Positions 1 to 64,000 of a stretch of 64,000 bases of DNA are shown in pieces. How positions within the stretch are numbered: position 1 is the stretch's first letter; every line of letters starts with the position of its first letter. The notes beneath the pieces are model-generated. The model did no database searches. It was not told where the DNA came from and was given only the letters and a program-made list of their open reading frames with translations. Both the position numbers and the translations under genes were made by a program. Source of the stretch: Burkholderiaceae bacterium (GTDB lineage Bacteria > Pseudomonadota > Gammaproteobacteria > Burkholderiales > Rhodocyclaceae); the NCBI GenBank assembly GCA_021738065.1, contig JAIPCT010000003.1:474-64473 (forward strand), in the 5' to 3' direction.

Positions 1-713
1 CCGAACAGCGACAGCGGCTGATTTTCACCATCCACGGTCCAGCTCGCGTTGAATATCTTGTGCCGGCAATGCTCGGAATTGGCCTGGGCGAACATCATCA
101 GCTCGACGTCGGTCGGATTGCGACCCAGCGTGCCGAAGTTCTCCACCAGATAGTCGATCTCGTCGGCCGAGAGCGCGAAGCCCATCTCGGTATTAGCCTT
201 GACCAGCGCCTCGCGCCCGCCACCGAGAATATCCACCGTCGCCAGGGGCTGCGGCGCGACATGGTGAAACAGAGCCTTGGCGGCGTCGATGGAGGGCAGC
301 ACGGATTCCGTCATGCGGTCATGCAGCCGTGCCGCCAGCGCCGACTTTTGCTCATTCGCCACAGAGCCGACGATATGAAACGCCGTGCCGCGCTCGACGC
401 GTTTGACGCCGGTAAAGCCGCAATTGCGGGCAATATCGGTGGCCTTGGAACTCCAGGGTGAAATCGTTCCCAGGCGCGGCGTGACCAGCAACAACTCGCC
501 TTTGAGCGGGGCCGGCAGCTCGCCAGGGACGCCCAGCAGATCCTTGAGCCGTGCGGATTCGTCCTCGCTCAAGGGTCCGTCAAGCTCAATGAAATACCAA
601 TGCTCGGCGGCAAGCTCAAGCCCGGCAATGCTTGCGTCAATGGACGCTTTCAGACGTGCGAGACGGGGCAGCGACAACGCGGCAGAACCACGCAGGGCAA
701 GGAATTCAGCCAT
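1..713 (-). CDS. purL: Phosphoribosylformylglycinamidine synthase, N-terminal part (runs off the left edge)
   Basis: Reverse-strand translation from ATG at 713 gives [14 protein letters not shown]... and later [24 protein letters not shown], the PurL signature. Not in the ORF track because it has no stop within the window. Confidence 0.95.
325..349 (-). repeat. Dispersed 25-bp motif, copy 1 (AAAAGTCGGCGCTGGCGGCACGGCT)
   Basis: Inside purL, sense orientation, encodes QKSALAAR. Confidence 0.85.
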
Positions 714-932
714 GAAGAATGGACCGGTGCGGGTAAGGAAATGGTTTGCTAACCAAGGCGCGGAATTATACTCTGGGCCGCTTGACGGACATTCCGGACA
801 AGCGGCAACTTGATGCTCGACCGCATCGACCGGGGCCTGAAGCTTGCCCCTTGGCGAGCGCAGGGCAGCGCATCGGGTGTAAGCCCGGCCTTGCTACACT
901 AGTCGCATTGCGCTCAAGACAACAGGACAGCC

Positions 933-1796
933 ATGACTGCTTACTCGATTGATGTTGGGGTCAGCGACTTTCAAGAGAAAGTCCTTGACGCTTCGCGACT
1001 CGCACCCGTGCTGGTGGACTTCTGGGCCGAGTGGTGCGCCCCCTGCCGCATGCTCAAGCCGATACTGGAAAAACTGGCTGCGGAGTATGGCGGGCGCTTC
1101 ATTCTCGCCAAGCTCGACTCGGACCGGCACCAGGAAATCGCCGCGCGCTACGGCGTGCGCGGCATTCCCAACGTCAAGGCTTTCGTCAATGGTGAAATTG
1201 TCGATGAAATCACCGGCGCCGTGCCCGAGGAGGCGATTCGCAGCTTCATCGAGCGTCTGATGCCCTCCCCCGCCGAACCGCTGCGAGTCGCCGCCCAGGC
1301 CGCGCGCGCGCAGGGCGATACGGATGTCGCCCGCTCCCTGCTGGCCGATGCCCTGGAACTCGATCCGGCCAACGAGACGGTGCAACTCGATCTGGCCGAG
1401 ATTCACATCGACATGCAGGACATCGACGCGGCGAAATCGCTGCTGGTCGCGATTGAACACACCGCACGCGATACCGAGCGGGTACGCACGCTGCTGGCCC
1501 GCCTCAATCTCGTGGCTGCCGGCGGCAACGCCGACCCGGCACCCCTCAAAGCCCGCATCGAGGCCAACGCCGACGATCTCGACGCGCGACTGCAACTGGC
1601 CAACACCCTGGCGCTGTCCCACGAATACCGCGCGGCACTGGAGCACTTGCTGGAGATCGTGCGGCGCGACCGCGGCTGGCAGGACGAAGCGGCGCGCAAG
1701 ACCATGCTGGATTTGTTTACCCTGCTCGGCGGCGATCCGCAGCAGGCCGATCTGGTACGCGAGTTCCGAATTCAGCTGGCGCGCACGCTGAACTGA
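933..1796 (+). CDS. ybbN: Thioredoxin-domain/TPR chaperedoxin (YbbN/CnoX)
   Basis: VDFWAEWCAPC thioredoxin motif followed by TPR-like helical region, 287 aa. Confidence 0.9.
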   Translation: MTAYSIDVGVSDFQEKVLDASRLAPVLVDFWAEWCAPCRMLKPILEKLAAEYGGRFILAKLDSDRHQEIAARYGVRGIPNVKAFVNGEIVDEITGAVPEEAIRSFIERLMPSPAEPLRVAAQAARAQGDTDVARSLLADALELDPANETVQLDLAEIHIDMQDIDAAKSLLVAIEHTARDTERVRTLLARLNLVAAGGNADPAPLKARIEANADDLDARLQLANTLALSHEYRAALEHLLEIVRRDRGWQDEAARKTMLDLFTLLGGDPQQADLVREFRIQLARTLN

Positions 1797-1820
1797 AAAG
1801 TCGGCGATGGCGATACGGCA
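1796..1820 (+). repeat. Dispersed 25-bp motif, copy 2 (AAAAGTCGGCGATGGCGATACGGCA)
   Basis: Overlaps the last base of the ybbN stop codon; identical to copy at 7010-7034. Confidence 0.9.
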
Positions 1821-1824
1821 TCCA

Positions 1825-1849
1825 AAAACTCGGCGCTGGTGACACGGCG
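1825..1849 (+). repeat. Dispersed 25-bp motif, copy 3 (AAAACTCGGCGCTGGTGACACGGCG)
   Basis: Intergenic, tandem with copy 2 at a 29-bp period. Confidence 0.9.
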
Positions 1850-2085
1850 AGCGGCCGGTACCTGGCCCGCACGACCTTACGCATTCCTCGCTGGTAAAGA
1901 CGGCGATCCGGATTCTGTGATTGACATCCGGCGCGCATGCTGCGACGCGGAACAACTTTATTGGTGTTTGGCTCGAGTCTCAAGCCGTCGATGACTCCTG
2001 TGTGCCCTAAGGCGACATTCGACTTGCTCAACAGCGGACAATCAGCAACGGAGTCTTTGTTGGCTCGCCAGTTCGAACAAAGCTG

Positions 2086-2885: not shown

Positions 2886-2927
2886 TCGGATCTTTCAAAA
2901 CTTAGTTCGCCATTCCTTACAAAAGTA

Positions 2928-4793: not shown

Positions 4794-7139
4794 ATGCAGC
4801 CCTCCACCCAGTCGCGTATCGCGCAACGCATTGCCGAAGAACTCGGCGTCCGCCCGCAGCAGGTTGTCGCTGCTGTGCAGTTGCTGGACGAAGGCGCCAC
4901 CGTGCCCTTCATTTCGCGTTATCGCAAAGAGGTGACAGACAACCTCGATGACACGCAATTGCGCAATCTGGAAGAGCGCCTGAACTACCTGCGCGAGCTG
5001 GAAGACCGCCGCACGGTGATCCTTGCTTCGATCGAGGAACAGGGCAAGCTGACGCCGGAACTCCAGGCCACCATTGCCACGGCGGAAACCAAGCAAAGCC
5101 TCGAGGATCTTTACCTGCCCTACAAGCAAAAGCGCCGCACCAAGGCGCAGATCGCGCGCGAAGCCGGCCTTGAACCGCTGGCGGATGCGCTGTTCAATGA
5201 TCCGCTGCGGGTACCCGAAGTCGAGGCCGAAAAGTACCTCAACCCGGAACTGGATCCGCCCGAAAAACACGTTGCGGACATCAAGTCTGCGCTTGAAGGC
5301 GCGCGCCAGATTCTGATGGAACGCTTCAGCGAAGACGCGGCGCTGTTGGCCAAACTGCGCTCCTATCTCGGCGACTACGCCCTCCTTGTGTCGACCGTGG
5401 TCGAAGGCAAGGAAGTGGCCGGCGCCAAATTCCGCGACTGGTTCGACTTCCGCGAATCCATCAAGACCCTGCCTTCGCACCGCGCCCTGGCCCTGCTGCG
5501 CGGACGCAATGAAGACGTCCTGCGCCTGGCCCTGAAAACCGAGCAGGAACTGCGTGAGCCGCCTGAATCCTCGCCCTGCACGGCCATGGTCTCGGGTCAT
5601 TTTTCGATCCGCGACCAGGGTCGCGCGGCAGACAAATGGCTGCTGGAAACCGCGCGCTGGGCATGGATGGTGAAGCTTTCCCTGCACCTGGAATCGGAAC
5701 TGATGAACCAGTTGCGCGAACGTGCCGAAGCGGAAGCCATCCGTGTCTTCGCCCGCAATCTGCACGATCTGCTGCTGGCCGCACCGGCCGGGCAGCACAC
5801 CGTCATCGGCCTCGATCCCGGCATCCGCACCGGCGTCAAGGTGGCCGTCGTCGATCTCACCGGCAAGGTGGTGGACACCGCAACCATCTATCCGCATGAG
5901 CCGCGCCGCGACTGGGAAGGCTCGCTGGCTACATTGCGCCAGTTGGCGCAAAAACATGGCGCCGGGCTGATCAGCATCGGCAACGGCACCGCCAGCCGGG
6001 AGACCGACAAACTCGCGGCCGAACTGATGCGCCGCCATGCCGAACTCAAGCTGACCCGTATCGTGGTCTCCGAGGCCGGCGCCTCGGTGTATTCGGCGTC
6101 CGAACTCGCGGCGAAGGAGTTTCCCGATCTCGACGTATCCCTGCGCGGCGCGGTATCCATCGCTCGTCGCCTGCAGGATCCGCTGGCGGAACTGGTGAAG
6201 ATCGAGCCGAAGGCCATCGGTGTCGGCCAGTATCAGCACGATCTCAACCAATCACGGCTGGCGCGCGCGCTCGATGCGGTGGTGGAAGACTGCGTGAACT
6301 CGGTGGGTGTCGATGTGAACACCGCCAGCGCCGCGCTGCTGAAACGCATCTCGGGGCTCAACAGCACACTGGCCGGCAACATCGTCAGCTATCGCGATAC
6401 TCACGGCGCCTTCAAGTCGCGCGCGGCGTTGAAGCAGGTGCCGCGCCTCGGCGACAAGGCCTTCGAACAGGCGGCCGGGTTTTTGCGGATACGCGATGGC
6501 GACAACCCGCTGGATGCTTCGGCGGTGCACCCGGAGGCCTATCCCGTGGTCGAGCGCATCCTCGACGACATCAAGCGTGGTGTCCGCGAGATCATCGGCG
6601 ACAGCAGCAGCCTGCGCGCTCTGGATGCCCGCAAGTACATTGACGAACGCTTCGGCCTGCCGACCGTGCAGGACATCCTCAGGGAACTGGAAAAACCCGG
6701 CCGCGACCCGCGTCCCGAGTTCAAGACGGCGTCATTCAAGGACGGCATCGAGGAACTCAAGGATCTGCAACCCGGCATGCTGCTCGAAGGCGTGGTGACC
6801 AATGTCACCAACTTCGGCGCTTTCGTCGATATCGGCGTGCATCAGGACGGCCTGGTGCACGTTTCGGCGCTGGCCAATCGCTTCGTCAAGGACCCGCACG
6901 AAGTGGTCAAGGCCGGTGATGTGGTCAAGGTCAAAGTGCTGGAAGTTGACGCGGCGCGCAAGCGCATCGCGCTGACCATGCGCCTGGCGGACGAACTGCC
7001 CGCCGCCGGAAAAGTCGGCGATGGCGATACGGCAAATCGGAATCGCGGCGGCACGGCAAGGGGAAAACCGCCGCCTCAGGAGCGCAAATCCGATACTGGC
7101 GGCGCCATGGCTGCCGCTTTCGCCAAGCTCAAGAACTGA
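4794..7139 (+). CDS. tex: Tex transcription accessory protein (S1 RNA-binding)
   Basis: [27 protein letters not shown]-terminal S1 domain. Confidence 0.97.
7010..7034 (+). repeat. Dispersed 25-bp motif, copy 4 (AAAAGTCGGCGATGGCGATACGGCA)
   Basis: In the tex C-terminal tail, encodes KVGDGDTA. Confidence 0.9.
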
Positions 7140-12951: not shown

Positions 12952-15453
12952 CTACTGCGCCGACCTCAGCGCCGGCAGCGCCGACTGGCGCAACATGGAT
13001 GAGGCGCCCAGCCAGCCGGCGACCACCACCAGCACGACACCGGCCAGCAATCCGACGCCCCACAATTCCGCTTGCGGCAAGTACTCGAGGCGAAACACGA
13101 AGCGCGCCAAGCCCCAGCCAATCAGGCTTGCCGCGATGCCGGCGAGCAGGCCGGCGAGCGCGCCAAGTGCGGCGAATTCGGCCAGCAAGGCGCTGGAAAG
13201 TTGCCGACTGCGAGCGCCCAGCGCCCGCAACACCGCTAGTTCATGACGCCGTTCGTCGCTGCTGGCCTGCAATGCCGCATACAGCACAGCCAGCCCGGCA
13301 AGCACCGCGAAGCCGAACACCAGTTGCACGGCACGCGCCACTTGGTCGATCGTGGCATGGAGTTGCTTGACCAAGGCGGCGACATCAATCACCGTCAGGT
13401 TGGGGAATGCGCGCACCAGCTCGGGTATGACATAGGCCTTGTCGGGCGGCAAGTGAAAGCTGGTGATGAAACTGGCCGGATAGTCCTTGAGTACATCCGG
13501 CGGCGCCATGACGAAGAAATTGACTCGCATCGAATCCCAGTCGAGCTTTCTCAGGCTGGTAATCGCCGCCTCGACCGAATTGCCGGCGATGTCGTAGCGC
13601 AGGCGATCGCCCAGTTTCAGATTCAGGGTCTCGGCCAGGCCCTGTTCCACGGAAAACTCGGCCGCCTGTGTCGCGCCATGCCAACGACCGCCGCTGACGG
13701 TATTGCCGGCAGGCAATGCGGCCGACCATGACAGGTTGAACTCGCGATCGACCAGACGCTGGGCGCGATCATCGGTATAGCTTTCCGGACTGACCGCCTG
13801 GCCATTGACCTGCGTCAGGCGGCCGCGCACCATCGGTTCAAGTTCCGGCGGCGTCAGCCCCCTCGCCCTGAAAAAGTCGGCGATGGCGACACGCTGATCA
13901 GGCTGGATATTGATCGCAAACCGATTGGGGGCGTCGACGGGAACCCGCGCCAGCCAGCTATCGAGCAGATCGCCGCGCGCCACCGTAAGCAGCAGCAGGG
14001 CCGTGAGTCCCAGCGCCAGCGCCACGGCTTGCACCAGAGTTGCCGCCAGGCGCCGCCGCAGGTTGGCCAGTCCATGGCGCCAGCCATAGCCTTTGCCCGC
14101 CGGGCGAACGCGGCCCAGCAGCGCCAGCAGCGCACGCGCCATCAGGTAGAAAAAGCCGAGGGCGATGAGGAAACCGCTCAGCACGATCAAACCCAGACGC
14201 AGTTCGCCCGCCATCCACAGCATCAGTGCGGCGAGCACCGATGCGCCCAGCAGATAGGCGCCGACGGAGGCCGACAGTGAGGAATATTCGGACCCGCTCC
14301 ACTCCCGGCGCAGCACGCGTATGGTCGGCACCCGCCGCAGGCGCAGCAAGGGCGGCAAGGCAAAGCCGATGATCAGGGTCAGGCCGACCAGGAGGCCATG
14401 AATCCAGGGCAAGGGCGATGGCGCCGGCAACTGTGTCACCAGCAATCCAGCCAACAGCTGCTGCAACGCGGCTTGCACGCCATAGCCCAGAGCGCATCCG
14501 GCCAGCGTCGCCGCCAGACCAAACAGCAAAAACTCGCCACCATGGATCAGCAGCAGCTGCTGCGCCGAGGCGCCCATGCAGCGCATCACCGCGCAGCCAT
14601 CGAGATGCCGCCGCATATAGCGTTCGGCAGCCAGTGCCACGGCAACCGCGGCAAGAATCACGGCCAGCAGCGCCGCCAGCCGCAAAAAGCGTTGTGCGCG
14701 CTCGGTCACGTTGCGGATCTCGGGCCGAGCGTTGTCCAGGCTTTCAATTTTTTCGCCCCGCTCGAGCCGGCTCGTGGCCCAGAATTCGAAGGCCGCGACC
14801 GCCGCCGTGTCACCCGCCAGATGCAGGCGATAGCGAACGCGGCTGCCGTTCTGGATCAGGCCGGTTGCCGGCAAGTCCGCAAGGTTGATCATCAGACGCG
14901 GCGCCAGGGCAAACACATTCATGCCGCGATCCGGTTCCAGGGTTAGCACCGGGCCGCTGAGGACTTCGATTTTCCCCAGGGCGAGCGACGTGCCGGCCGC
15001 GAGATTGAGGGATGTCGCCAGACGTTCGTCGGGCCACGCCTCGCCGACGCGAGGCACACGCGGCATCGGCGCATCGGGCGCATTCAGTTCGGGCGCGCTG
15101 CGCAAGCCGCCGCGCAGGGGATAGCCTTCCGTCACCGCCTTGATATCGGCGAGTATCGAAGTTTCACCGAGGCTGACCATGCTCGGAAAGGTGACGCTTT
15201 CCGCCTGGCGCAGCCCTCGCGCCGCGGCTTCCTGACGAAAACCGTCGGTCCAGGGATGATCGGAACTCAGCAGCAGGTCGCCGCCGAGCAGCTGGTGCGA
15301 CTCCAGGCGCAAGGCCTGTTCGACGCGGTCGGTGAGAAAGCCGACGCTGGTCAGCGCGGCGACCGCCAGCATCAGGGCAATGCCCAACACCGTCAATTCA
15401 CCCGCGCGCCAGTCACGGATGAGCATGCGCAGAGCCAGTCTCAGGGAGGTCAT
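12952..15453 (-). CDS. ABC transporter permease, YbbP/FtsX family
   Basis: RDWRAGEL, LLGGDL, NRFAINIQPDQ, LDWDSMRVNFF; many transmembrane segments. Confidence 0.92.
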   Translation of the reverse strand: MTSLRLALRMLIRDWRAGELTVLGIALMLAVAALTSVGFLTDRVEQALRLESHQLLGGDLLLSSDHPWTDGFRQEAAARGLRQAESVTFPSMVSLGETSILADIKAVTEGYPLRGGLRSAPELNAPDAPMPRVPRVGEAWPDERLATSLNLAAGTSLALGKIEVLSGPVLTLEPDRGMNVFALAPRLMINLADLPATGLIQNGSRVRYRLHLAGDTAAVAAFEFWATSRLERGEKIESLDNARPEIRNVTERAQRFLRLAALLAVILAAVAVALAAERYMRRHLDGCAVMRCMGASAQQLLLIHGGEFLLFGLAATLAGCALGYGVQAALQQLLAGLLVTQLPAPSPLPWIHGLLVGLTLIIGFALPPLLRLRRVPTIRVLRREWSGSEYSSLSASVGAYLLGASVLAALMLWMAGELRLGLIVLSGFLIALGFFYLMARALLALLGRVRPAGKGYGWRHGLANLRRRLAATLVQAVALALGLTALLLLTVARGDLLDSWLARVPVDAPNRFAINIQPDQRVAIADFFRARGLTPPELEPMVRGRLTQVNGQAVSPESYTDDRAQRLVDREFNLSWSAALPAGNTVSGGRWHGATQAAEFSVEQGLAETLNLKLGDRLRYDIAGNSVEAAITSLRKLDWDSMRVNFFVMAPPDVLKDYPASFITSFHLPPDKAYVIPELVRAFPNLTVIDVAALVKQLHATIDQVARAVQLVFGFAVLAGLAVLYAALQASSDERRHELAVLRALGARSRQLSSALLAEFAALGALAGLLAGIAASLIGWGLARFVFRLEYLPQAELWGVGLLAGVVLVVVAGWLGASSMLRQSALPALRSAQ
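13872..13896 (+). repeat. Dispersed 25-bp motif, copy 5 (AAAAGTCGGCGATGGCGACACGCTG)
   Basis: Antisense in the permease gene, encodes QRVAIADF. Confidence 0.85.
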
Positions 15454-16925: not shown

Positions 16926-18017
16926 TCAATTTTCGTCGACGATCGGCACACGCGCCGCCAGCGCACAAAACAATTCGTAGGCCACGGTGCCGGCGGCACT
17001 GGCTACCTCGTCCGCCGCGAGGTACATGTCGCCCTGGCCGCCCCATAAGGTCGCCGTCTCGCCAACGCCGACTTTTTCCGGCAGCCCGCTCAAATCAATG
17101 CAGATCTTGTCCATCGAGACACGACCCAGCGTGCGCGTGCGCTGCCCGGCGATCTGCACCGGCGTTCCGGTAGGTGCGTGGCGCGGGTAGCCGTCGCCAT
17201 AGCCGCAGGCCAGCACGCCCACGCGCATCGGCGAATCTGCGACAAAGCTGCCGCCATAGCCAACGGCATCGCCGGCTTGCAGTTCGCGCACGGCGATCAA
17301 TTCGCTTTCAAGCGTCATCACCGGCTGCAAGCCGATCTCGGCGGCGGTTTGCAGGGCGGGAAATGGCGACGAGCCATAGAGCATGATCCCGGGGCGAACC
17401 CAGTCGCCCACCGCTTCGGGAAAGCGCAGCAGCGCGGCGGAGTTGGCCAGGGACACGGGCAAATCGCGCCCATTTGTCATGGACTGGAAGCGTGCGAGCT
17501 GGGCGGCGATGCCGCGAACTTCGTCGGCGTCGGCAAAATGCGTCATCAGCGTGACCGCTCCGGCACAATCCGCCGCGTCCAATCGGGTCAAGGCGGCAAT
17601 GAACTCGTCCTGGTTGAATCCCAGGCGGTTCATGCCGGTGTTCAGTTTGAGATAGACCGGCAAGCGCATCGGCAGGCCGGCTTCAAGCAAGGCTTCAATC
17701 TGCCACGGAGAATGCAGTACCGGGACCAGATCCAGTTCCGCATACAGCGAGAATTCATAGCCCTGATACGGCCCTTCCAGCATCAGTATCGGCTGGGAAA
17801 TTCCCGCATCGCGCAAGGCCATCGCGCCCTCAAGCTCGACCAGGGCGAATCCGTCGGCGACATCCTCCAGTGCGCGTGCCGCGGATAGCAGTCCGTGTCC
17901 ATAGGCATCGGCCTTGACAACGCTCCAGACGCGAGCGCCGCCGGCATGGTGGCGCGCGACGTTCTGATTGTGCCGCAACGCGGCCCAATCAAGACGCGCG
18001 CGTATTGGTCGCGACAT
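16926..18017 (-). CDS. alr: Alanine racemase
   Basis: VVKADAYGHG, TGMNRLG, GYGDGYPR, GRVSMD. Confidence 0.96.
   Translation of the reverse strand: MSRPIRARLDWAALRHNQNVARHHAGGARVWSVVKADAYGHGLLSAARALEDVADGFALVELEGAMALRDAGISQPILMLEGPYQGYEFSLYAELDLVPVLHSPWQIEALLEAGLPMRLPVYLKLNTGMNRLGFNQDEFIAALTRLDAADCAGAVTLMTHFADADEVRGIAAQLARFQSMTNGRDLPVSLANSAALLRFPEAVGDWVRPGIMLYGSSPFPALQTAAEIGLQPVMTLESELIAVRELQAGDAVGYGGSFVADSPMRVGVLACGYGDGYPRHAPTGTPVQIAGQRTRTLGRVSMDKICIDLSGLPEKVGVGETATLWGGQGDMYLAADEVASAAGTVAYELFCALAARVPIVDEN
17052..17076 (-). repeat. Dispersed 25-bp motif, copy 6 (AAAAGTCGGCGTTGGCGAGACGGCG)
   Basis: Sense in alr, encodes KVGVGETA. Confidence 0.85.
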
Positions 18018-20725: not shown

Positions 20726-20728
20726 CGC

Positions 20729-21643
20729 TCAGCGGACGTCCGGCTCGAAGAACACCCATTGCGCGCTGGGAAATTTCTCCTGCATGCGCGCTTCGACCGC
20801 ATTGATGGCTTCGACCATCTGCCGACCCGTTCCGCCCTGCATGCCATGCATGCGGGCCTTGACCGCGATGACGACTTTTTCACCCCAGGCCAGGGTGATG
20901 ACATTCAACACTTCTTCAACTTCCGGCTGAGCGGCGACAAAGCTCTCGATCTCGGCGCGCAACCGCGGCGCCGCGGACTCGCCGACGATCAGGCCCTTGA
21001 CTTCGATCATGATGGCGACGGCAATCACCATCAAGACGATGCCGATCGCCAGGGTACCCAGCGCATCCCACAAAGGATTGCCGGTGACGACCGTCGCCGC
21101 GACCGCGATGAAAGCCAGTGCCAGGCCAAGCAAGGCGGCAATATCCTCGCCGGCGACCACCATCAACTCGGACTGCCGTGTTTCGCGGAACCAGACCAGG
21201 AATGACTGCGCTCCGGCCACTTTGCGGATCTCGATCAGCGCCCCCCACAAGGAAAACGCCTCCAGCACAACAGCGCCGCCCAGCACCGCCATGGCGATCA
21301 GGCCGTTCTCCAGCGGATGCGGATGCAGCAGCCGCTCGATGCCCTCGTACACCGAGAACGCTCCGCCCATGAAAAACAGCAGCAGCGCCACGATCATCGA
21401 CCAGAAGTAGGTGACGCGGTGGTGGCCCAGCGGAAAGTCGGCGCTGGCGGGACGGCGTGCCTGCTTCAAACCCAGCAGAAGCAACACCTGGTTGGCGCAA
21501 TCGGCGGTGGAGTGAATCGCCTCGGCCAGCATCGACCCGGACCCGGTCCAGAACGCAGCGATGAACTTCGACACGGCAATGCCGAAATTGGCGCCCAGCG
21601 CATAGTAGATCGCCCGTACCGAGCCGTCGCTGCTGCTTGACAT
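20729..21643 (-). CDS. Cation diffusion facilitator family transporter
   Basis: GSGSMLAEAIHSTAD, EDIAAL; six TM segments; start MSSSSDG overlaps the udg stop. Confidence 0.9.
   Translation of the reverse strand: MSSSSDGSVRAIYYALGANFGIAVSKFIAAFWTGSGSMLAEAIHSTADCANQVLLLLGLKQARRPASADFPLGHHRVTYFWSMIVALLLFFMGGAFSVYEGIERLLHPHPLENGLIAMAVLGGAVVLEAFSLWGALIEIRKVAGAQSFLVWFRETRQSELMVVAGEDIAALLGLALAFIAVAATVVTGNPLWDALGTLAIGIVLMVIAVAIMIEVKGLIVGESAAPRLRAEIESFVAAQPEVEEVLNVITLAWGEKVVIAVKARMHGMQGGTGRQMVEAINAVEARMQEKFPSAQWVFFEPDVR
21433..21457 (+). repeat. Dispersed 25-bp motif, copy 7 (GAAAGTCGGCGCTGGCGGGACGGCG)
   Basis: Antisense in the CDF gene, encodes RRPASADF. Confidence 0.85.
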
Positions 21644-22407
21644 CAGTCGACCTTTCGCGTTTCCATGGTCTGTCGCATAAAGCATAGGTCTTCCCATGCT
21701 TTGGCCTTGTCCAGCAAGGTTCGCAGCAGATACGCCGGGTGGTAGCTGACGATCAACGGAATGCCCTGATAGTCGTGCAGTTTGCCGCGCGCGGCACCGA
21801 TCTTGACTTCAGTCTGCAGCAACGTCTGCGCCGCCGGACGACCCAGCGCGGCGATCAGCTTTGGTTGCAGCAATTCGATCTGCCGTTCAAGAAACGGGCG
21901 ACACGCAGCGATTTCGTCAGCCGCCGGTGTGCGATTTTCCGGCGGCCGGCATTTGACGGCATTGGCGATATAGACATCGCGACCACGCTTGAGTCCAATC
22001 GCTGCCAGCATGTTGTCGAGCAGTTTTCCCGCCTGGCCGACGAAAGGCTCGCCACACTCATCCTCTTCCGCACCCGGCCCCTCGCCGACAAACAGCCAGT
22101 CGGCGCCGGTATCGCCAACGCCCAGCACGGCTTGCTTGCGTTGCTCGCAAAGTCGGCACCGGCGACACGCCGATGCAGCGGCCGCCAGTTCATCCCAAGC
22201 CATTGCGGAAACCGGGATAGCGTCCGCGTTCGATACAAAGCTGGGTACCGGCAACTCCGCTGCCGCCGGATTGGCTTCCGGCGACTCGACTATCGCCGCA
22301 TGGGTTTCCATCGCTGCGTCAGGCATCACCTCAGTTGCGGGTGTACGCAGCTTCCAGATGGGGCCCAGCCCCATTTCATGCACGATCCGCTCACGGTCCA
22401 TCGTCAT
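21643..22407 (-). CDS. Uracil-DNA glycosylase, family 4
   Basis: CRRCRLC, VGEGPG, KCRPPENR, YHPAYLLR. Confidence 0.93.
   Translation of the reverse strand: MTMDRERIVHEMGLGPIWKLRTPATEVMPDAAMETHAAIVESPEANPAAAELPVPSFVSNADAIPVSAMAWDELAAAASACRRCRLCEQRKQAVLGVGDTGADWLFVGEGPGAEEDECGEPFVGQAGKLLDNMLAAIGLKRGRDVYIANAVKCRPPENRTPAADEIAACRPFLERQIELLQPKLIAALGRPAAQTLLQTEVKIGAARGKLHDYQGIPLIVSYHPAYLLRTLLDKAKAWEDLCFMRQTMETRKVD
22148..22172 (+). repeat. Dispersed 25-bp motif, degenerate copy (CAAAGTCGGCACCGGCGACACGCCG)
   Basis: 21/25 to consensus; antisense in udg, encodes ACRRCRLC. Confidence 0.55.
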
Positions 22408-22847: not shown

Positions 22848-23533
22848 TTTGCGCCGCCGCGGGCCAGCCGTTCCGCCGTCGTCAACGCCACCTTGTCGCG
22901 CACATAAATCGGTTGCGCCAGGGCCGCGTCATGCGCGGTGCCACGATCAAACACCGGCACGGCAAGACGCAGCACCGCGGACGCCGTGGGAAATACATCG
23001 GTGCGTACGCCCAGCAGATCGGGCTTGCGGGCACGCAGCAGATCGCCATAACCGACGAAAGCATCGCCCGCGCCCCAGCCTCCCGGAAAACTCGGCGCTG
23101 GTGCTACGGCGGGCGGCAGGCAAACCGGCGCCATCAGCTGCACCACGCTGTCGCCTGTAACCCGAAAGGCAGCGCTATACACTTCGTTCATGCGCGCGTC
23201 GAGACAAGTCCAGACGTCACCATCGCCAAACGCCAACGCCAGCGCCTCCAGCGTCGATACCGGAACCACCGGACGCTCAAGACCGTAGGCCAGGCCTTGC
23301 GCCACGCCACAGGCCAGGCGCAAGCCGGTGAAGCCGCCCGGGCCCGCGCCAAAAGCCACGCCATCGATTTGCGACAAAGCGATGCCGGCTTCGGCCAGCA
23401 ATTCATGCGTCCATGGCAACAAATGTTCCGAGCCGCCGTTGACGACTTCTGCCGTGCGTTCGATGATTTCGCCGTCCTGCCACAAAGCGGCGGACAATTG
23501 GCGTGTCGCCGTCTCGAATGCCAGCAGCCGCAT
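22844..23533 (-). CDS. tsaB: tRNA t6A biosynthesis protein TsaB
   Basis: LAFETAT, GPGGFTGLR, LDARMNEVY, PIYVRDKVA. Confidence 0.95.
   Translation of the reverse strand: MRLLAFETATRQLSAALWQDGEIIERTAEVVNGGSEHLLPWTHELLAEAGIALSQIDGVAFGAGPGGFTGLRLACGVAQGLAYGLERPVVPVSTLEALALAFGDGDVWTCLDARMNEVYSAAFRVTGDSVVQLMAPVCLPPAVAPAPSFPGGWGAGDAFVGYGDLLRARKPDLLGVRTDVFPTASAVLRLAVPVFDRGTAHDAALAQPIYVRDKVALTTAERLARGGAK
23087..23111 (+). repeat. Dispersed 25-bp motif, copy 8 (AAAACTCGGCGCTGGTGCTACGGCG)
   Basis: Antisense in tsaB, encodes AVAPAPSF. Confidence 0.85.
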
Positions 23534-46337: not shown

Positions 46338-49300
46338 TCAGTCGAAGCTTGAATTGTATTCCAGAGTCGCCAGGATGCCATGGGCCACATAAAACACCGC
46401 CAGTCGCTGCGGCAAGTCCTCGGCGGCGAACAACGCAGCATAGGATTCGAGCTGTACACGGAAACGCTCGGCATGCTCCGTCAGTCGAGAACGATCGGCC
46501 GCTTCGCCAAGATCGGCAGTCTTGTAATCGACGATCCAGCGCACGCCATCTTCGACAAAACAACGATCGACCACGCCCACCTGCGCCGTGCCGCCAGCGC
46601 CGACTTTTGTCAGCGCCAGTTCCGCGCCGGCATCCTCACGTCGGCTCAGAACCCAGCGTCCATCCGCGCTGCCCAAGGTGGTGGACAACATTCGCACGAC
46701 ACGGGCCGCACCGGCTCGGGCCTCGGCCGGCGGCCAGCCCCGGCTGGCCAGCCAGCGCTCAAAACCCGGCTGCCGCTGGGCGACCGCCTCCGCCGTCCAC
46801 GCCTCGGGCTCGACGGCGACCAGTTCCAGCACGGCATGCGTCACGATACCTACCGCGGCACCCAGTGGATCCAGTGTCTCGCCGCGGTTCCCATACCTCA
46901 CCGTCGAGAACGCAGGCGCTCGCCAGTGCTCCGAAGCGACAGGCGCTGTGAGCCGCACCAACTGCGGCACGAAATCCGCCAGATCACCTGCGACAAGCTT
47001 GCTCGAATCGTCCGCCGTCGTCGCACTGGCTTGCTGGAAAGTCGATTCGACCGCAGGCCACAGGCGGGCGAGGGGCGAAGCCGCACGTGGCGCCATCAGC
47101 ACGCCCTGCTCATCGCAGCGGGCAACCCCCACCAGATGCAAGCGGCGCACCGCGCGCGTCGCCGCGACGTAAAGCACGCGGGATTCTTCATTGCGGCTGC
47201 GCTCGCGCTCCATGCGCTGCAAAAAGTCGTAAGCGGTCGGCTCGCCGCTGCCGCGGGCGCGTCGCTGGTTCACGGGTGCCGCGACAAGACGCTCGCCCGA
47301 AGCCAGCGAAAAACTGTCCCAGGCCAGCAAAGGTGTATCGCGCCCGGCCGGTTCCCGATGCAGGCCCGGCAAAATCACCGTGTCGAATTCAAGCCCCTTG
47401 GCCTTGTGTATCGTCATCAACTGCAAGCGGCCGTCAGCCTGCGCATCCGGCGCGGCGTACAAGCGGCCCAGATCGTTTTCGAGACTGTCAAGTGCAAAAC
47501 GTCCGGCCGCGACCAGCGCATCGAGACGCTGGAAGAAGGCCCGGGCATTGGCGAGTGCGTCGGCATCCGGTGCGCCGCGTCCATCTGCCAGACACTGCGG
47601 CCCGCCCAGTTTGCGCCAGACGTCTTCGACCCAGCGCCGGCAGCGCTGTCGGCCTTGCCCGGCCAGGGCTTCACCCAATACCTCGCGCAGATAAACCAGA
47701 CGGCGCCGGCCGTCATCCGACAATCTTTCGACGCGCTGCGCGTCATTCATCAGCGACCAGACAGTGGCCTGGTGATTATCGCCGGCCAGGGCATGCAGGT
47801 CGGCCAAACACAGGCCGCACCAGGGTGCGCGCAGGATCGCCAGCCAATGCACCCGATCGCCCCGATGATGCAGGGCGCGGGTCAGGGAGACCAAATCCTG
47901 CACGACCTGACGTCCGGCCAGCGCTTCGATTTCCACGGCAGAGAAACGCCAATCGCCGGCATGCCGGCGGATCGCCGCGACCAGCGCGACCAGATGATCC
48001 CGCGCCCGCACCAGTACCGCGATCTGCCGCGCCGGATCTTCGTGCCATTCGCTTTCGATCAGCGAAATGATGCGCTGCGCCTCGGCGCCGGCAAAGTCAC
48101 CCTCGCCCTTGATGGCCAGCACGGGATGAATCGAGACACCCGCTTGTGCCTGGGTTTCCCTTGTGGCGACGAACTCGCGATAGCGGATCTCGCCGCGCAG
48201 GGGATCGTCGGCTGGCGGAAACACGCCCGGAAAGCAGTCATTGATCCAATTCACCACCTCGGGACAGGAGCGGTTGTTGCGCGACAGGCGCAAGGGCTGC
48301 AGCCGCAGCGAGCCGATGCCTTGGGCGGCAACACGCAGGAAAAGTCCGACATCGGCCTTGCGGAAACGGTAGATGGACTGCATCGGATCACCCACCGCGA
48401 ACAGGGTGCGGCCGTCGTCGGGCTGCCAGCCGGCGATCAGGCGCTCGAGCAGCTCGACCTGGGTTGGGCTGGTGTCCTGGAATTCGTCGACCAGCAAATG
48501 GCGGATGCGGTAATCGAGACGCAAGCCCAATTCGGACGGATCGAGCTCGTCACCCAGCGCGGCAATGGCGCGGCTCGACAGTTCACCGAAATCGACTTCG
48601 CCGGATTCACGAAAGACCAGCCAGAGTTCCGCTGCAGCGAGCTTCATCAGGCGGGCCAGCGCACGCACCACGGCATCATTGTTGTGATCGGGAGCCGGCA
48701 GCACGCGCAAGCCGCGCAAGGCATCGATTGCGGCGGCATCCAGCCCGGCCAATCCTTCCAGCATGCGATCTTTTTGCGCCTTGAACTCCTTGCCGGCGGG
48801 AAAGCCGTTCTTCACGGTCACCGTCTTGCGCGGCTCATCCTTCAGCGTGAGCAGCAAGTCCGCCAGCGCGCGCCAGTCAGGCAGATACTCCGGATCGGCG
48901 GCCAGTGGCTGCGTCCAGTCCTCCAGGCGACCGCCGCCGAGCTGGCCGGCGGCAAAACGCGCCAGCGGCATCCACGGCGTCTGCCAGGACTCGTCGAGCA
49001 CCGCCGCGATCAGCGCCAGCTCTTCGCCGACCATTTCCTGCAACGCTTCGCTGATGGCCGACTCAGGATCGTCAAGCTCTGCAATCTCGCGCCATTGCTC
49101 GCGCCGCGCCAGCATCTCGGCGAGCAGACGCGCCAGCCGCGCAACATCGTTGTCGAGGTAAGCCAGAGCGGATGCCACCGCCTCGGCGTATTCGCGCTCA
49201 TCCTCGCCGCGGCCCTCGAGATGATCCAATGCGCGCCGCGCCGCCTCCTCGTAATGCCGCTGCGCGTCTTCCGCCACTGCCGGCTGCGCGCCGAAGCGTG

Positions 49301-50161: not shown

Positions 50162-52915
50162 TCACTGCTCTTCCTCGAATTGTGTGCGCCGCTCGGCGAC
50201 GCGCAGCAATGGGTGCACGTCGCAATACGCCAATACCTGTTCGTCATCGAACACCACGGCCGCGGCGCCGTTCCGCACTTCGAGCGCAATCTCCCTGATG
50301 CGCTGCGCCCAGTGCCGCCGCAGGGCGTCCCAGTCGGCAAACTCTTGCTCCGGGTAGCGCTTGCGCAGCGCGTCCAGCGGTTTCACCTCGGGCAGCAAGC
50401 CGTCGCTCTGCGCCACACCGAGAAAACCCGGCTCGTCGCGGGTGACACGCGCAAGGGCCACGGCCGCTACGGCGCGGTCGGGAAACGCCAGTGCGGCATA
50501 GATCGGCAACTGCGGTTCGCTGATGCGCGCGTCGGCCCAGCTATCGGCCGAGACACTACGCCCGCTCTTGTAATCGATCACCACCAGACGCCCGTCGTCG
50601 AGTTGATCGACGCGATCGACCACCACGCGTACCGGCAGGCCTTCGATATCGAGTTCGTGCCGCTCTTCGCAGGCGATTACGCGAAACGGCGCGCGCTGTG
50701 CTTCCAAGGCCAGCCAGACATCTAGCAAGATCTGCAGCCGCTTGTCTTCAAGCTGACGCAAGCGCGGCGGCACGGGCTCGGCGGCGCGATGGTCGAACTC
50801 CACCAGGGCATGGCTCACCACGCGCCGGATTTCTGCCTCGCGCCCGCTCGCGTCCAGTTGCAGCAGATCGGCCAGCGCGCGCCCGCGCCAGAACTCTTCC
50901 AGGGCCGCATGCAGCAGTGAGCCGCGAGCCCGCGCGTCCAGCCCGAAACTCGGCGCTGGCAACACGGCGGCACCGAGCCGGTATTGGTAGAAACCCCATG
51001 CCGGACACATCGCCTGTGCCTGCAACAAGGCCGTGCCGCCCCGAATTCGCTCATCGGCGCCCAGCGGCGGAGCGCGCGCATCGTCGAGGCGTTCCAGCAG
51101 CGCAGCTCCGTGAACTCCCGGCGCATTCTCCGGCGCCGGAGACCACTCGTCGCGAGGAACACCCGCCAGCAAGGGGCTGGCTCGCAGCGGCCGTTCGCCT
51201 TCCTGGCGGAACCAGGAAAACACCACCTCGTCCGCACTACCGCACCACAAAGCCTGCAGGCTCAGCGCCTCCATCGCCAGACTATCGGCGCGCGCGGCAG
51301 AGATCCCGGCACGGCGCTGAAGCTCAGCCGGCAGCAAGGGGTTCGGACGCGGCGCAGGCGGCCAGGCGCCTTCATTCAATCCCATCACCCAAAGTCCGTC
51401 GCCGGCGCCAGCCAGTGCGTCGCCCAGACTGCAAACCTCAACACGAGCCGCACTCTGCCGGGGCGCCGCAAATACCCGGTCCCGACACTGGCGCTGCAAC
51501 TGACGCAAGGCGTCGCTTGCGGTGACGCGGCCGAGAATGACGTCCAGCGCCAGCAACTCGCCCATCGCCTCGCGCAATTGAGCGCAGGCTTCATGCTCCG
51601 TCGCCAGCAGTTCGCGTTGCCCCGGCCAGCCCAGTGCCTCAAGCACTTGGCCAAAGGCGCTGCCCCAGGCCGAGGGCAGCTGGCGGCGCGGCGTGCTCCG
51701 CGCGGATTCAAGCAATGCGCCGAGGTGGATCGCGAGTCGAGGCGCATGCACCGCCGTGGATTCCTCGGCAAGCAGACGCGATACCGCGCGCTGCAAGCGC
51801 TCAAGACTGGTTTCCGGTGGCAGCAACTCGCGCAGTCCGGCCTCAATGCAGGCGCGGCCATCGGCCTCGTCGATGTCGGCCGACCAGCCCGGACCGCAGA
51901 GCAGCGCGCCAAACCCGGCCTGCGCCACGCGCTGCGGATTGACAAAGAGTTGCAGCAGCCGCAGCGCCACGTCGATCAGCGCTTCCGCCGCCAGGGGCGC
52001 ACCCGCGACGAAAACATAGTCCTTTTCCTGGGCGGCCCAGCCTGCCCCTACCGCCTGCGGATGCAATGCATCGTCGAGTGCCGCCTCCAGCAAGCGCCGA
52101 CGCGCAGGCAGATCGGCTACCGCAATTCGCAAGCGCAGCGGCGTTGCCATGGCCGGCTTTTCAGCTCCATGTCGCTGCAGGCAATCGCGCGCCCAGTGCG
52201 CCGCAGCGATGCATTCGGCCTCGGCGTCGGGCAATTCGACGGCCCGCGCCGGTGCGGCAGTTTTGCGCCCGGAATCGACGCGAAACAACTCGATGCCACG
52301 CTTTTCCAGCACCACGAGCAAGCGTGAAACCATCGGATCCGGCGTGACAAAACCGGCGATGCCCAGACGCGCCGGCAGGCCGCCGATGCCACGTTCAAGG
52401 CACTCGATGCGCCACGCCAACACTTCATCCGCCCTGCACCAGTCACCAGCGGCACAGGCCTGCTGAACCTCCTTGTGCCAGCGCCGATAAGCGCGGAACT
52501 CCTCGGTGTGCAAGGCTTCGGGGACTTCAATGCGCCACCAGGCCTGCAGGCTGGCCGCCTCCATGGCTGCCAGCGCCATGCCCTCGCGATCAAACAGGTC
52601 GCCGGTGGCGCCGGTATCACGCGCGATTGCCTGCTCCCATAAACAACGCTCTTGCGCCCGGGAAAGGAAGCTGCCAGGAACGCTGGCCGGCGGGATATCG
52701 CCGCGCAACAAGGCTGTGGAGGTCAGATGATCCAGCCACATTGCCGGCGTCGAACTTTGCAGCGCACGCCAGGTGTCGGCCCCGCGCGCGATTTGCAAAT
52801 CGCCATGCGCGGCGCGCAGGCCCAGCGCCAAACGCGCCGTAGCGCAAAGCACAATCGGCTCCGGCCCGCCGGGCAGATCGGCGAGCGATACGAGAGGCAG
52901 ATCGGAGCGGATCAT
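50162..52915 (-). CDS. addB: AddB-like PD-(D/E)XK nuclease subunit
   Basis: RGSLLHAALE, VDRVD...VIDYKSG, EPQLPIYA; upstream of the addA-like gene. Confidence 0.85.
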   Translation of the reverse strand: MIRSDLPLVSLADLPGGPEPIVLCATARLALGLRAAHGDLQIARGADTWRALQSSTPAMWLDHLTSTALLRGDIPPASVPGSFLSRAQERCLWEQAIARDTGATGDLFDREGMALAAMEAASLQAWWRIEVPEALHTEEFRAYRRWHKEVQQACAAGDWCRADEVLAWRIECLERGIGGLPARLGIAGFVTPDPMVSRLLVVLEKRGIELFRVDSGRKTAAPARAVELPDAEAECIAAAHWARDCLQRHGAEKPAMATPLRLRIAVADLPARRRLLEAALDDALHPQAVGAGWAAQEKDYVFVAGAPLAAEALIDVALRLLQLFVNPQRVAQAGFGALLCGPGWSADIDEADGRACIEAGLRELLPPETSLERLQRAVSRLLAEESTAVHAPRLAIHLGALLESARSTPRRQLPSAWGSAFGQVLEALGWPGQRELLATEHEACAQLREAMGELLALDVILGRVTASDALRQLQRQCRDRVFAAPRQSAARVEVCSLGDALAGAGDGLWVMGLNEGAWPPAPRPNPLLPAELQRRAGISAARADSLAMEALSLQALWCGSADEVVFSWFRQEGERPLRASPLLAGVPRDEWSPAPENAPGVHGAALLERLDDARAPPLGADERIRGGTALLQAQAMCPAWGFYQYRLGAAVLPAPSFGLDARARGSLLHAALEEFWRGRALADLLQLDASGREAEIRRVVSHALVEFDHRAAEPVPPRLRQLEDKRLQILLDVWLALEAQRAPFRVIACEERHELDIEGLPVRVVVDRVDQLDDGRLVVIDYKSGRSVSADSWADARISEPQLPIYAALAFPDRAVAAVALARVTRDEPGFLGVAQSDGLLPEVKPLDALRKRYPEQEFADWDALRRHWAQRIREIALEVRNGAAAVVFDDEQVLAYCDVHPLLRVAERRTQFEEEQ
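50945..50969 (+). repeat. Dispersed 25-bp motif, copy 12 (GAAACTCGGCGCTGGCAACACGGCG)
   Basis: Antisense in addB, encodes AVLPAPSF. Confidence 0.8.
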
Positions 52916-53059: not shown

Positions 53060-54415
53060 TCATGGAATGAGCCTGTCCTCTTCCTTTGCCGACAATTCTG
53101 GCGCCTGCACGTCGCGCGGCAATGCCTCCACCGGATTCAGATCGCGGATTTCCTTGTCTTCGCTGGTGACTTTCAGGTCGCGGAACTTGCGCGCCGAGAC
53201 CAGCACCCGCCGCTCCATCGAAGCGACGGAATCGTTGTAGGCGCCGACCGCCTCGCCGAGGTTCTTGCCGACGCGGCTCCAGTGCTCGGCGACGGTGGCG
53301 ATCCGGTCGTACAGTTCGCGCCCGAGGACGCTGATGCGTTCTGCATTTTCGGTCAGCGCCTGCTGGGTCCAGCCGTAGGAAACGGCACGCAGCAAGGCAA
53401 TCAGCGTGGTCGGCGTGGCGAGGATCACGCGCTGCTCGACGCCCTGCTCGATCAGCGAAGGGTCGGCTTCCAGCGCGGCCGAGTAGAACATTTCGCCCGG
53501 CAGGAACAGCACGACAAAATCCGGCGAGGGCTGAAACTGCTCCCAGTAGGCTTTCTGGCCGAGCTTCTTGAGGTGCTCGCGCACCTGCCGCGCGTGATCG
53601 GCGAGCTTGCGCTTCTTCTCCGCCTCGTCGTCGGTTTCCAGCGCTTCGAGATAGGCCGCCAGCGGTGCCTTGGCATCGACCACGATATTCTTGCCGCCGG
53701 GCAGACGCACGATCATGTCCGGGCGCAGCCGGCCATCTTCGGAGTTGGTACTGGCTTGTTCCTCGAAGTCGCAGTGATCGAGCATGCCGGCCATTTCGAC
53801 CACGCGCTTGAGCTGCAGCTCGCCCCAGCGCCCGCGTGTTTGCGGCGCGCGCAGCGCCTTGACCAAGTTGCCGGTCTCCAGGCGCAGTGCGCCCTGCGCC
53901 TCGGCCATGGCGCGCACCTGCTCGGTCAGCGTGGCATAGGCATCGACGCGCGACTTTTCGATGCCCTGAATCTGCTGTTCGAATTTCTCCAGCGACGCCT
54001 TTACAGGGGTCACCAGTTCACCGATCGCCAACTGCCGCTTGTCCAAATCGGTCCGCGCCGCCGCCAGCGCGGCCGCCTGCTGCGCTTCCAGCGTGTTGCG
54101 GGCGAGTTCGAGGAATGACTGGTTGTTCTTGGTCAATGCCTCGGCCGAAATCACCTTGAAGGCATCGGCAAAACTGTCGCGCGCCGCTTCCAGCGTGGCC
54201 TGGCGCTCGGCAAACAGCGCCTGGTCTTTTTCCAGCTCGGTTTGCAGTGTGGCACAGCGTATCGCCAGCGCCGACTCTTGAGAACGCAGCCGTGCCAGCT
54301 CGCCTTCGAACAACCCTATCTGCGCTTTGGCTTCGCGCAAGCGTGCGCCAAAAACCCAGGCCACCAGCCCGCCGCCGAGCAACAAGCCCACCACCAGCGC
54401 AATACTCATGTCCAT
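53060..54415 (-). CDS. rmuC: DNA recombination protein RmuC
   Basis: N-terminal TM plus coiled coil, RGRWGELQL, RPDMIVRLP, VDAKAP, ATPTTLIALL. Confidence 0.95.
   Translation of the reverse strand: MDMSIALVVGLLLGGGLVAWVFGARLREAKAQIGLFEGELARLRSQESALAIRCATLQTELEKDQALFAERQATLEAARDSFADAFKVISAEALTKNNQSFLELARNTLEAQQAAALAAARTDLDKRQLAIGELVTPVKASLEKFEQQIQGIEKSRVDAYATLTEQVRAMAEAQGALRLETGNLVKALRAPQTRGRWGELQLKRVVEMAGMLDHCDFEEQASTNSEDGRLRPDMIVRLPGGKNIVVDAKAPLAAYLEALETDDEAEKKRKLADHARQVREHLKKLGQKAYWEQFQPSPDFVVLFLPGEMFYSAALEADPSLIEQGVEQRVILATPTTLIALLRAVSYGWTQQALTENAERISVLGRELYDRIATVAEHWSRVGKNLGEAVGAYNDSVASMERRVLVSARKFRDLKVTSEDKEIRDLNPVEALPRDVQAPELSAKEEDRLIP
54255..54279 (-). repeat. Dispersed 25-bp motif, copy 13 (AAGAGTCGGCGCTGGCGATACGCTG)
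   Basis: Sense in rmuC, encodes QESALAIRC. Confidence 0.8.
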
Positions 54416-63121: not shown

Positions 63122-63483
63122 GCCAGATGCGATTTGATCAGGAGCACGAGATCCTTTGTTGAAAACGGCTTGGTGACGTAGGCATCCGCGCCCAGCGCCA
63201 ATCCTTTCGCGACTTCCGTCTCGCGCCCCTTGGCAGTGAGCATGATGATCTTCACCGAGGCCGTTGCCGGATCGGTGCGCAAAGCCTGACAGACTTCGAA
63301 GCCCGATTTCTTGGGCATCATCACATCGAGCAATATCAGATCGGGCGCAAACTCAGCCGCTTTGCGCAAGGCATCGTCGCCGTCTACGGCGACAGCGGTC
63401 TCGAAGCCTTCCTTCTTCATCAGAAACTCAAGCGAAATGACGATGTTCGGCTCGTCATCAACAATCAGGATGCGACGACTCAT
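63118..63483 (-). CDS. Single-domain response regulator
   Basis: ILIVDDEPNI, LLDVMMPK, MLTAKG, YVTKPF. Confidence 0.93.
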   Translation of the reverse strand: MSRRILIVDDEPNIVISLEFLMKKEGFETAVAVDGDDALRKAAEFAPDLILLDVMMPKKSGFEVCQALRTDPATASVKIIMLTAKGRETEVAKGLALGADAYVTKPFSTKDLVLLIKSHLA

Positions 63484-63555
63484 GCAACTCCCCCCGACAA
63501 AATATTTGCTCCAGGTGACCACGTCATTTGTCGACCTGCCTCCCCTTTGACTGCA

Positions 63556-64000
63556 CTAGCTGTTCTTGCTTGCATCATTATCTCCCGTGAGCCGGGGAAG
63601 TGTGAACACAAAACTCGTGCCGGCAGCCGGCGAGCTTTCCACCCACAGCCGGCCATGGAAATACTCAATGATCTGACGGCTGATCGGCAAGCCGAGGCCG
63701 GTTCCTTGCGGCTTGTCGGTAAGCACGTCGGCGGTGCCGGCACCCTGACGGAATTTGTCGAAGATCAATTCCTGATCGGCGAGCGGGACTCCGGGGCCGT
63801 TGTCGGTGACATGGACACGCACTTCGTTCGCCGTACCGCGAGCGCCGACTTTGACGTGGCCGCTTCCCGCCGGCGCAAACTTGAGCGCGTTGGACAACAG
63901 GTTGACCATGACCTGGATCAGGCGATCACAATCGGCCTGGACGGCGAGCCCGGGTTCGCAGGTTTCGATCTCGAGCGTGACACGCTTTTCGGTAAAGAGC
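63556..64000 (-). CDS. Sensor histidine kinase, C-terminal HATPase part (continues beyond the window)
   Basis: DRLIQVMVNLLSNALKF, DNGPG, GTGLGL. Confidence 0.92.
   Translation of the reverse strand, partial: LFTEKRVTLEIETCEPGLAVQADCDRLIQVMVNLLSNALKFAPAGSGHVKVGARGTANEVRVHVTDNGPGVPLADQELIFDKFRQGAGTADVLTDKPQGTGLGLPISRQIIEYFHGRLWVESSPAAGTSFVFTLPRLTGDNDASKNS
63829..63853 (-). repeat. Dispersed 25-bp motif, degenerate copy (CAAAGTCGGCGCTCGCGGTACGGCG)
   Basis: One core mismatch; sense in the kinase gene, encodes KVGARGTA. Confidence 0.7.

Follow-up and report, generated by a model that had tools for sequence, protein, structure and literature searches.

A 64,000-nucleotide stretch of DNA from a freshwater, Sulfuritalea-like member of the Rhodocyclaceae (GenBank assembly GCA_021738065.1, contig JAIPCT010000003.1, positions 474 to 64,473; hereafter the window) contains repeated copies of an asymmetric 26-bp word, which from its sequence and distribution we consider likely, on balance, to be a DNA uptake sequence under molecular drive. 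A preliminary description of the window had noted a dispersed motif and proposed either a self-DNA recognition signal or the site of a chromosome-wide binding protein. The motif is not confined to the window, since a matrix iterated on the whole source genome (G000; 3.40 Mb in 148 contigs, 88% complete) recovers 618 sites when the threshold is set at 16 bits, and the scores are bimodal with a clear valley. The consensus is RAAAGTCGGCGCTGGCGANACGGCG and the density is ~180 sites per Mb, or about one per 5 kb.

The pattern TCGGCG-H-TGG-Y-R-NN-ACG given in the preliminary description matches G000 446 times, compared with 1.3 matches expected under a fifth-order Markov model, and the 369 sites in coding sequence compare with 39-53 after synonymous-codon shuffling (10 shuffles). 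These shuffles, together with the use of four reading frames and both strands, rule out a codon or peptide artefact. Nor is the pattern a by-product of its derivation from its own hits, because seeds taken from the left half and from the right half each independently recover the other half. The motif is a single block with 22 strongly fixed positions and two free positions that vary freely from site to site; it is not palindromic and has neither a hairpin nor terminal repeats. Its information content in G000 is 36.5 bits, whereas 13.4 bits are needed for site finding, a 2.7-fold excess. Sites with 0, 1, 2, 3 and 4 mismatches number 164, 214, 140, 65 and 37, respectively. The A/T-rich 5′ flank that had been described is indeed rich in A (94-98% in three 5′ positions of the genome-wide matrix) but belongs to the motif itself, and the GC content, put at ~65%, is actually ~60% for the window and 61% for the genome as a whole.

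The origin of sites was examined in aligned orthologues, principally from G163, a genome of another genus with its own dialect of the word (the first 2.4 of its 2.74 Mb were read). Among the 190 G000 sites for which orthologues were aligned, 98 correspond to a non-site with no gap, 22 have small gaps and 6 have large, insertion-like gaps, while 47 are shared in register and 17 have a partner site nearby. In a separate set of 127 loci, 100 comparisons comprised 52 shared, 20 substituted, 21 small-gap and 7 large-gap cases. These alignments indicate that sites arise mostly by substitution in permissive protein loops. Identity at fourfold-degenerate positions is 202/261 inside shared sites, compared with 89,676/170,797 outside. 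In two genes (G000 C115:6029-7306 and C68:12096-14900) the same protein loop carries the motif in opposite orientations in G000 and G163, suggesting that a single permissive place acquired its site independently in each.

In G163 the word ends in ACGGCAC, and at the 47 shared sites the dialect position is G in 41 cases in G000 and A in 44 cases in G163. Each site has thus been rewritten in place to the dialect of its lineage, which shows that every copy remains under pressure. In other dialects the first GG is replaced by GA (G116) or by AG (G156, in 79 of the 82 sites listed, and G146), and many G146 sites also change the last GG to CC. The parts that stay constant among dialects are AAAGTC and ACG, and the earlier suggestion that three GG(C/T)G units are read by a repeated binding module is not supported, as the GG units are the ones that change.

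Placement on the chromosome was analysed in G000, in G163 and in a closed genome (G002), for which polarity was tested on its 151 exact sites. Coding sequence of G000 holds 369 sites (211 sense, 158 antisense), while 233 (~38%) are intergenic and 16 overlap a gene end; these counts are approximate, the genes having been predicted with our own hexamer caller. The motif had been described as intragenic in core genes, and the majority of sites are intragenic, but it is not mainly a core-gene feature since 233 of 618 sites are intergenic. Coding sites are distributed among the six frames as 161/87/63/45/8/5 in G000 and 147/89/47/44/8/3 in G163; four frames are used, and the two that give Trp/Arg-rich peptides hold 13 sites in G000. 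Site density in G000 is 2.03 per kb in convergent spacers, 0.69 in tandem spacers, 0.46 in divergent spacers and 0.12 in coding sequence. A transcription-factor site was rejected on this difference between divergent and convergent spacers and on the absence of upstream enrichment.

Strand bias relative to replication is weak. Leading-to-lagging ratios are 243:206 in G000 (100 of 148 contigs, p 0.09), 87:64 in G002 (p 0.07) and 265:240 in G163 (p 0.25 for a near-identical hand count of 266:239), so that 53-58% of sites lie on the leading strand, compared with 66-76% for the FtsK-orienting polar sequences (KOPS), which are clearly skewed in the two genomes counted (228:73 and 191:99). Sites are uniform over eight sectors of G002 (p 0.62), and every 100 kb of G163 outside a prophage-like region holds 16-31 of them. 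The expectation of uniform, unskewed placement thus held, with no clustering at the origin or terminus and an even spread over sectors of closed chromosomes. At short range sites avoid each other: 28 spacings of 60-750 bp were seen in G000 where 76.5 were expected, and none below 300 bp in G163 where 31 were expected.

The longest intervals of G163 with few or no sites are the prophage-like region (150 kb, one site), a ribosomal-protein cluster (40 kb, no site) and an island rich in insertion sequences (labels read from protein starts), and a closed chromosome has site-free stretches of 117, 40 and 34 kb. Across 1424 orthologue pairs, genes more than 85% identical have 0.0/3.0 sites per 100 kb of gene, those 55-70% identical 19.7/25.8, and genes with no partner 10.7/11.4. 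Of 13 close pairs in G000, 12 are direct. Hairpin-forming inverted pairs occur neither among these 13 nor in the 2.4 Mb of G163, which rules out a role as terminator; one perfect inverted pair was seen in a relative (locus L193). A spacer on C38 of G000 (L005:6491-6640) carries seven tandem copies with a period of 24-25 bases. A putative Cas9 gene (G000 C29:575-3940), which we take to be Cas9 from its N-terminus, carries two acquired sites.

The exact pattern is present in all 36 genomes drawn from the genus (3-287 matches), with 0-1 matches in 24 genomes of other families. With one mismatch allowed, 39 of 400 family genomes have at least 91 matches and the remaining 361 have at most 23, and the carriers represent about a dozen genera. 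Allowing three mismatches in 80 genomes added four carriers (G116, G156, G146 and G085; 88-219 matches) and gave 87 matches in a weak member of the genus (G030), while the maximum in 244 genomes from 57 other families of the order was 6. In a scan of GTDB species, the matches listed belong mostly to Sulfuritalea, Sulfurisoma and other Rhodocyclaceae or betaproteobacteria, and include records labelled Methyloversatilis and Rugosibacter. When genomes are ranked by identity of GlnD to that of G000, 14 carriers come first, after which carriers and motif-poor genomes interleave, and the distribution is therefore patchy; on GlnD identity alone, motif-poor G092, G077, G205, G096 and G211 are as near to G000 as some carriers. 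In motif-poor genomes (e.g. G135, G087, G236 and G481) the few matches cluster on short stretches, as would be expected of DNA acquired from carriers.

Some sites are interrupted. A split-motif search identified 57 G000 sites divided by 19-77 nt, 49 of them by a length divisible by three, and a looser rule gave 56 in G000 compared with 3 in the reversed genome. The inserts include at least six families of hairpin module of 21-60 nt, which occupy fixed positions in the motif (e.g. at C113:2460 and on C3, C94 and C97) and are sometimes nested in each other (C12, C143 and C130); none was found in the window. Copies lie in motif context in 14/15, 5/5, 2/2 and 18/18 cases for four families, in ~13/20 for one that also enters other repeats, and in 5/7 for a family of 27 nt. 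Seven split coding sites have an aligned G163 orthologue, which holds the intact word in five cases and the word in opposite orientation in two, so that modules enter existing sites. The modules are secondary passengers, and they probably insert when single strands anneal at short homologies offered by the two halves of the motif, in the manner of short-patch double illegitimate recombination as outlined in the available literature.

The 60-nt module is present in 20 of 34 carriers, spanning seven genera of the common dialect, with one copy in G146. Among 46 motif-poor genomes only G071 has it, and G156, from the same genus, carries a dialect of the motif; the eight genomes of a genus with its own dialect (g44) all lack it. 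For the 27-nt module the figures are 14 of 34 carriers and one of 46 motif-poor genomes. Shared descent could explain these distributions as well as exchange. The g44 genus has a unit of its own, of 54 nt, in G163, where the first 2.4 Mb contain 44 copies, sometimes in tandem; the unit includes a degenerate inverted motif copy, and 43 of the 44 adjoin motif sequence. Two adjacent Y1-type transposase genes of G000 (C83:9700-12600), 88% identical and located beside genes for secreted proteins, showed no link to movement of the modules: they have their own repeated flanks, are not flanked by the modules and have no match in the part of G163 read. A further repeat family of G000, distinct from the motif and with CACAGAG as its unit (82 matches), also receives one hairpin module.

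Phages of these bacteria carry the motif as well. In at least 128 viral loci returned (overlapping loci kept, the seed match excluded from densities), there are 0.55 further sites per 10 kb, compared with 1.65 in chromosomal loci. The sites belong to genuine phage genes, whose surroundings contain little sequence of host type; those among 20 proteins scanned encode terminase, portal and tail proteins, antirepressors, reverse transcriptase and methyltransferases. The antirepressors suggest temperate phages, which as prophages would be exposed to drive. A family of phage beta-class DNA methyltransferases (L016, L019, L023 and others) carries the motif in a common C-terminal tail behind swapped middle parts, and this one inherited site accounts for 26 of the 128 viral loci listed. 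The methyltransferase was rejected as reader of the motif, as the site lies in the shared tail behind variable middles.

We propose that a lineage-specific reader would favour motif-bearing fragments during natural transformation and that homologous recombination of what is taken up would bring new copies to fixation through molecular drive. These bacteria are presumed to be transformable, and the bias would act at uptake. A second site within ~750 bp would add little if one site is enough per fragment, which under an uptake model explains the even spacing. Biased uptake followed by homologous replacement would likewise produce placement governed by tolerance, absence from new and constrained DNA, excess information and in-place change of dialect. 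The same traits are described for known uptake sequences in the available text of PMC7811141, PMC2817400 and bioRxiv 10.1101/2025.10.24.684340.

With respect to machinery, ComEC and DprA are intact in five of five genomes each, and ComM is above cut-off in 70 of 75. The type IV pilus is represented too, since G000 encodes minor pilins, a short major pilin and genes read as pilMNOPQ, pilC and pilD. The major pilin is apparently truncated (C77:5313-5495, ~52 mature residues), and after it come genes for a separate exported protein and for an ABC transporter. Three genera conserve the short form, whereas the G163 pilin is full-length. The only PF16732 match above cut-off in G000 is the ordinary PilE of a fimT-pilVWXY1 operon. 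A prepilin scan and comparison of pilin operons in five carriers (G000 being 88% complete) turned up no basic minor pilin common to them, and inspection by eye of basic or exported proteins common to G000 and G163, the latter without its last 337 kb, yielded no convincing candidate reader. The preliminary description had advised a search for ComP-like minor pilins: pilins are present, but no ComP-like receptor was found in the carriers compared. Interruption of comM was not used as a sign of transformation, because 4 of 44 motif-poor genomes also have a split gene and the 31 further carriers do not. The gene is divided by long inserts in G002 (C1:460.6-521.1 kb, with no exact motif match) and G315 (C1:1180-1220 kb), and is present as two contig-end pieces in G000.

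Several observations weigh against an uptake sequence. ComEA, the ratchet thought to pull DNA in (according to available parts of PMC7811141), is above cut-off in 3 of 28 motif-rich genomes and in none of five with a dialect or a low count, but in 17 of 47 that are motif-poor, a difference for which Fisher's p of 0.017 is overstated because kin are not independent; a query with the ComEA domain retrieved only long HhH proteins from five closed or nearly closed carriers and from G000. PilE and FimT of five carriers have only the pilin scaffold in common, diverge strongly and lack a conserved basic patch. ComM is equally intact in motif-poor relatives, and ComEC, DprA and ComM provide no specific evidence. 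The word is much longer than known cores, its density of ~180 sites per Mb is lower than in known systems, hairpin-forming inverted pairs are missing, and the scarcity of intermediate mismatch states is not obviously predicted by a slow climb through point mutations. On the other side stand strand, position and spacing, depletion in prophage and conserved genes, use of frames and the dialects, and the suggested uptake role is retained with these reservations. With most carriers lacking ComEA, the outer-membrane step would differ from that of Neisseria and Haemophilus. A fuller scheme, which we offer only tentatively, is a third, independently evolved self-DNA uptake system in which a 26-bp tag would be read without ComEA and without a ComP/ComN-type pilin, a gene pool of several genera would be split by changes of dialect, and hairpin modules of 21-60 nt would home via the imported single strand.

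It seems to us unlikely that the word is instead the site of a cytoplasmic chromosome-wide protein (a nucleoid organiser, spreading clamp or self-marking protector), with selection keeping one copy per few kb. Such a protein would account for even spacing with exclusion below ~750 bp, for the absence of ComEA and for sites in phage genes, and in-place dialect change would require just a changing reader. However, neither an origin-terminus pattern nor polarity is seen, the motif is not palindromic, its information is 2.7 times a reader's need, divergent promoter regions are avoided, phage density is lower, and 26 of the 128 listed phage loci represent one inherited site. A closed chromosome tolerates the site-free stretches of 117, 40 and 34 kb, which means that coverage is dispensable, and the nucleoid or segregation site offered as an alternative in the preliminary description is weakened by the longer two of these and by the lack of clustering and polarity.

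All the drive-type statistics would fit equally well if the motif acted after entry, helping incoming DNA, whether single-stranded or transduced, to survive or recombine, as a long Chi-like or RecA-loading signal. No surface receptor was found in five carriers, the hairpin form of the inserts could let a single strand loop them out, and the middle of the motif resembles Chi-type words; but this middle is the part that varies among dialects, Chi-type signals are polar and short whereas 53-58% of motif sites are on the leading strand, and AddAB-type enzymes are encoded in the genome. We regard such a post-entry bias as quite improbable. It is highly unlikely that the word is a self-copying micro-repeat without cell function, spread by short-patch replacement or by an enzyme. 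Copying would predict clustering where exclusion is seen, just 6 of 190 sites are insertion-like, the two free positions vary freely, there is no hairpin or terminal repeat, and the Y1 transposases are flanked by repeats of their own and lack a match in the part of G163 read. These points are set against the direct tandem copies (seven in a row on C38, 12 of 13 close pairs direct), the bimodal mismatch spectrum and the copying of modules between sites.

Among known systems, the uptake signal sequence (USS) of the Pasteurellaceae is similarly asymmetric, on both strands, evenly spread and under-represented in new DNA and constrained genes (in the available text of PMC7811141), with a reading-frame bias (in that of PMC2817400). 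The USS core and the motif both begin AAAGT. They otherwise differ in sequence, in the motif's single block of 22 strongly fixed positions and in frequency (~1 per 5 kb for the motif, 1 per 1 kb for the USS), and the motif has no terminator pairs, mostly no ComEA and no identified receptor. Inverted pairs in terminators are common for both the USS and the DNA uptake sequence (DUS) of the Neisseriaceae, as reported in the accessible part of bioRxiv 10.1101/2025.10.24.684340. The DUS, read by the receptor ComP, also has genus-level dialects, 1-3 letters apart, and occupies permissive protein positions, and by GTDB its hosts and the motif carriers belong to the same order. In contrast to the DUS, the motif is more than twice as long, forms no inverted-repeat terminators, and has as its PF16732 match a PilE that is variable among carriers. 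As first proposed, the motif is neither DUS nor USS, its consensus differing from both cores.

The statement that it is not a known chromosomal signal also holds. Chi and KOPS are likewise asymmetric, over-represented and located in genes, but the motif is three times longer and lacks their strong polarity to replication. The matS, SlmA/Noc and parS sites are chromosome-level DNA signals independent of promoters, and are palindromic and regional, whereas the motif is neither and has hundreds of copies. Repetitive extragenic palindromic (REP)/CGTC repeats (the former as described in the main text of PMC3733652) and Rickettsia palindromic elements resemble the inserted modules, being short hairpins often in-frame in genes; the motif differs in having no hairpin and arising mostly by substitution, with its modules at fixed positions inside it. 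Identity with REPs or miniature inverted-repeat transposable elements was rejected, as 6 of 190 sites are insertion-like and there is no linked transposase, hairpin or terminal repeat. The main text of PMC3733652, exclusive of supplements, makes no mention of Rhodocycl-, Azoarcus or Dechloromonas, and we found no description of the motif in the literature outside subscription journals and supplements.

To our knowledge, sequence-specific DNA uptake has been described for just two families, both of host-associated bacteria. If the uptake reading is correct, free-living sulfur-oxidising and denitrifying Rhodocyclaceae would be a third case, in which self-DNA preference evolved outside mucosal niches. 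The molecular-drive model could then be tested independently, a new reader recognising ~25 bp would be implied and, with most carriers lacking ComEA, DNA would have to be drawn across the outer membrane by another means. Donor DNA supplied with the word might render hard-to-engineer carriers transformable. The motif is also a strong host marker for the phages of carriers. Were a chromosome-wide binding system the answer, that too would be new.

In the window, whose genes are betaproteobacterial core genes (the RadA cluster has members named Sulfuritalea sp. and Rhodocyclales), the 13 clear copies reported earlier all match the pattern, which gave no match in any of 100 dinucleotide shuffles. 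All 15 reported sites, including two degenerate ones, score 22.9-41.1 bits, with coordinates agreeing within 1 base; the genome-wide matrix gives no further window site at 10 bits or more, and the mixed orientation (9 plus, 6 minus) is as described. The sites are as follows.

324..349, minus strand, 35.2 bits: sense, in purL (FGAR amidotransferase; gene by Pfam)
1796..1821, plus strand, 36.5 bits: starts on the last base of a thioredoxin/TPR gene; first of a direct pair
1825..1850, plus strand, 40.6 bits: intergenic, with convergent genes on either side; second member of the direct pair, 29 bases further along
7010..7035, plus strand, 38.8 bits: sense, in the C-terminal tail of tex
13872..13897, plus strand, 34.8 bits: antisense, in a YbbP-like ABC permease gene
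17051..17076, minus strand, 41.1 bits: sense, in alanine racemase; site kept at the same loop in a relative
21433..21458, plus strand, 37.8 bits: antisense, in a cation diffusion facilitator gene
22148..22173, plus strand, 27.4 bits: degenerate; antisense, in the N-terminal part of a family-4 uracil-DNA glycosylase frame (21643-22407)
23087..23112, plus strand, 36.7 bits: antisense, in tsaB
30357..30382, minus strand, 34.1 bits: sense, near the start of lpxD
36701..36726, plus strand, 22.9 bits: T-tract replacing the A-tract; antisense, at the 3′ end of uppS
46583..46608, minus strand, 40.0 bits: sense, in an AddA-like helicase; same place in a relative
50945..50970, plus strand, 35.6 bits: antisense, in an AddB-like repair gene (TIGR03623); same place in a relative
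54254..54279, minus strand, 30.5 bits: sense, in rmuC
63828..63853, minus strand, 34.3 bits: degenerate; sense, in a sensor kinase gene

An RNA element was rejected, as the window has no match to Rfam and the sites show no strand preference relative to transcription. Positions 2184-4441 of the window form a low-GC, motif-free stretch that contains a gene with a NERD nuclease domain and two genes without family matches.

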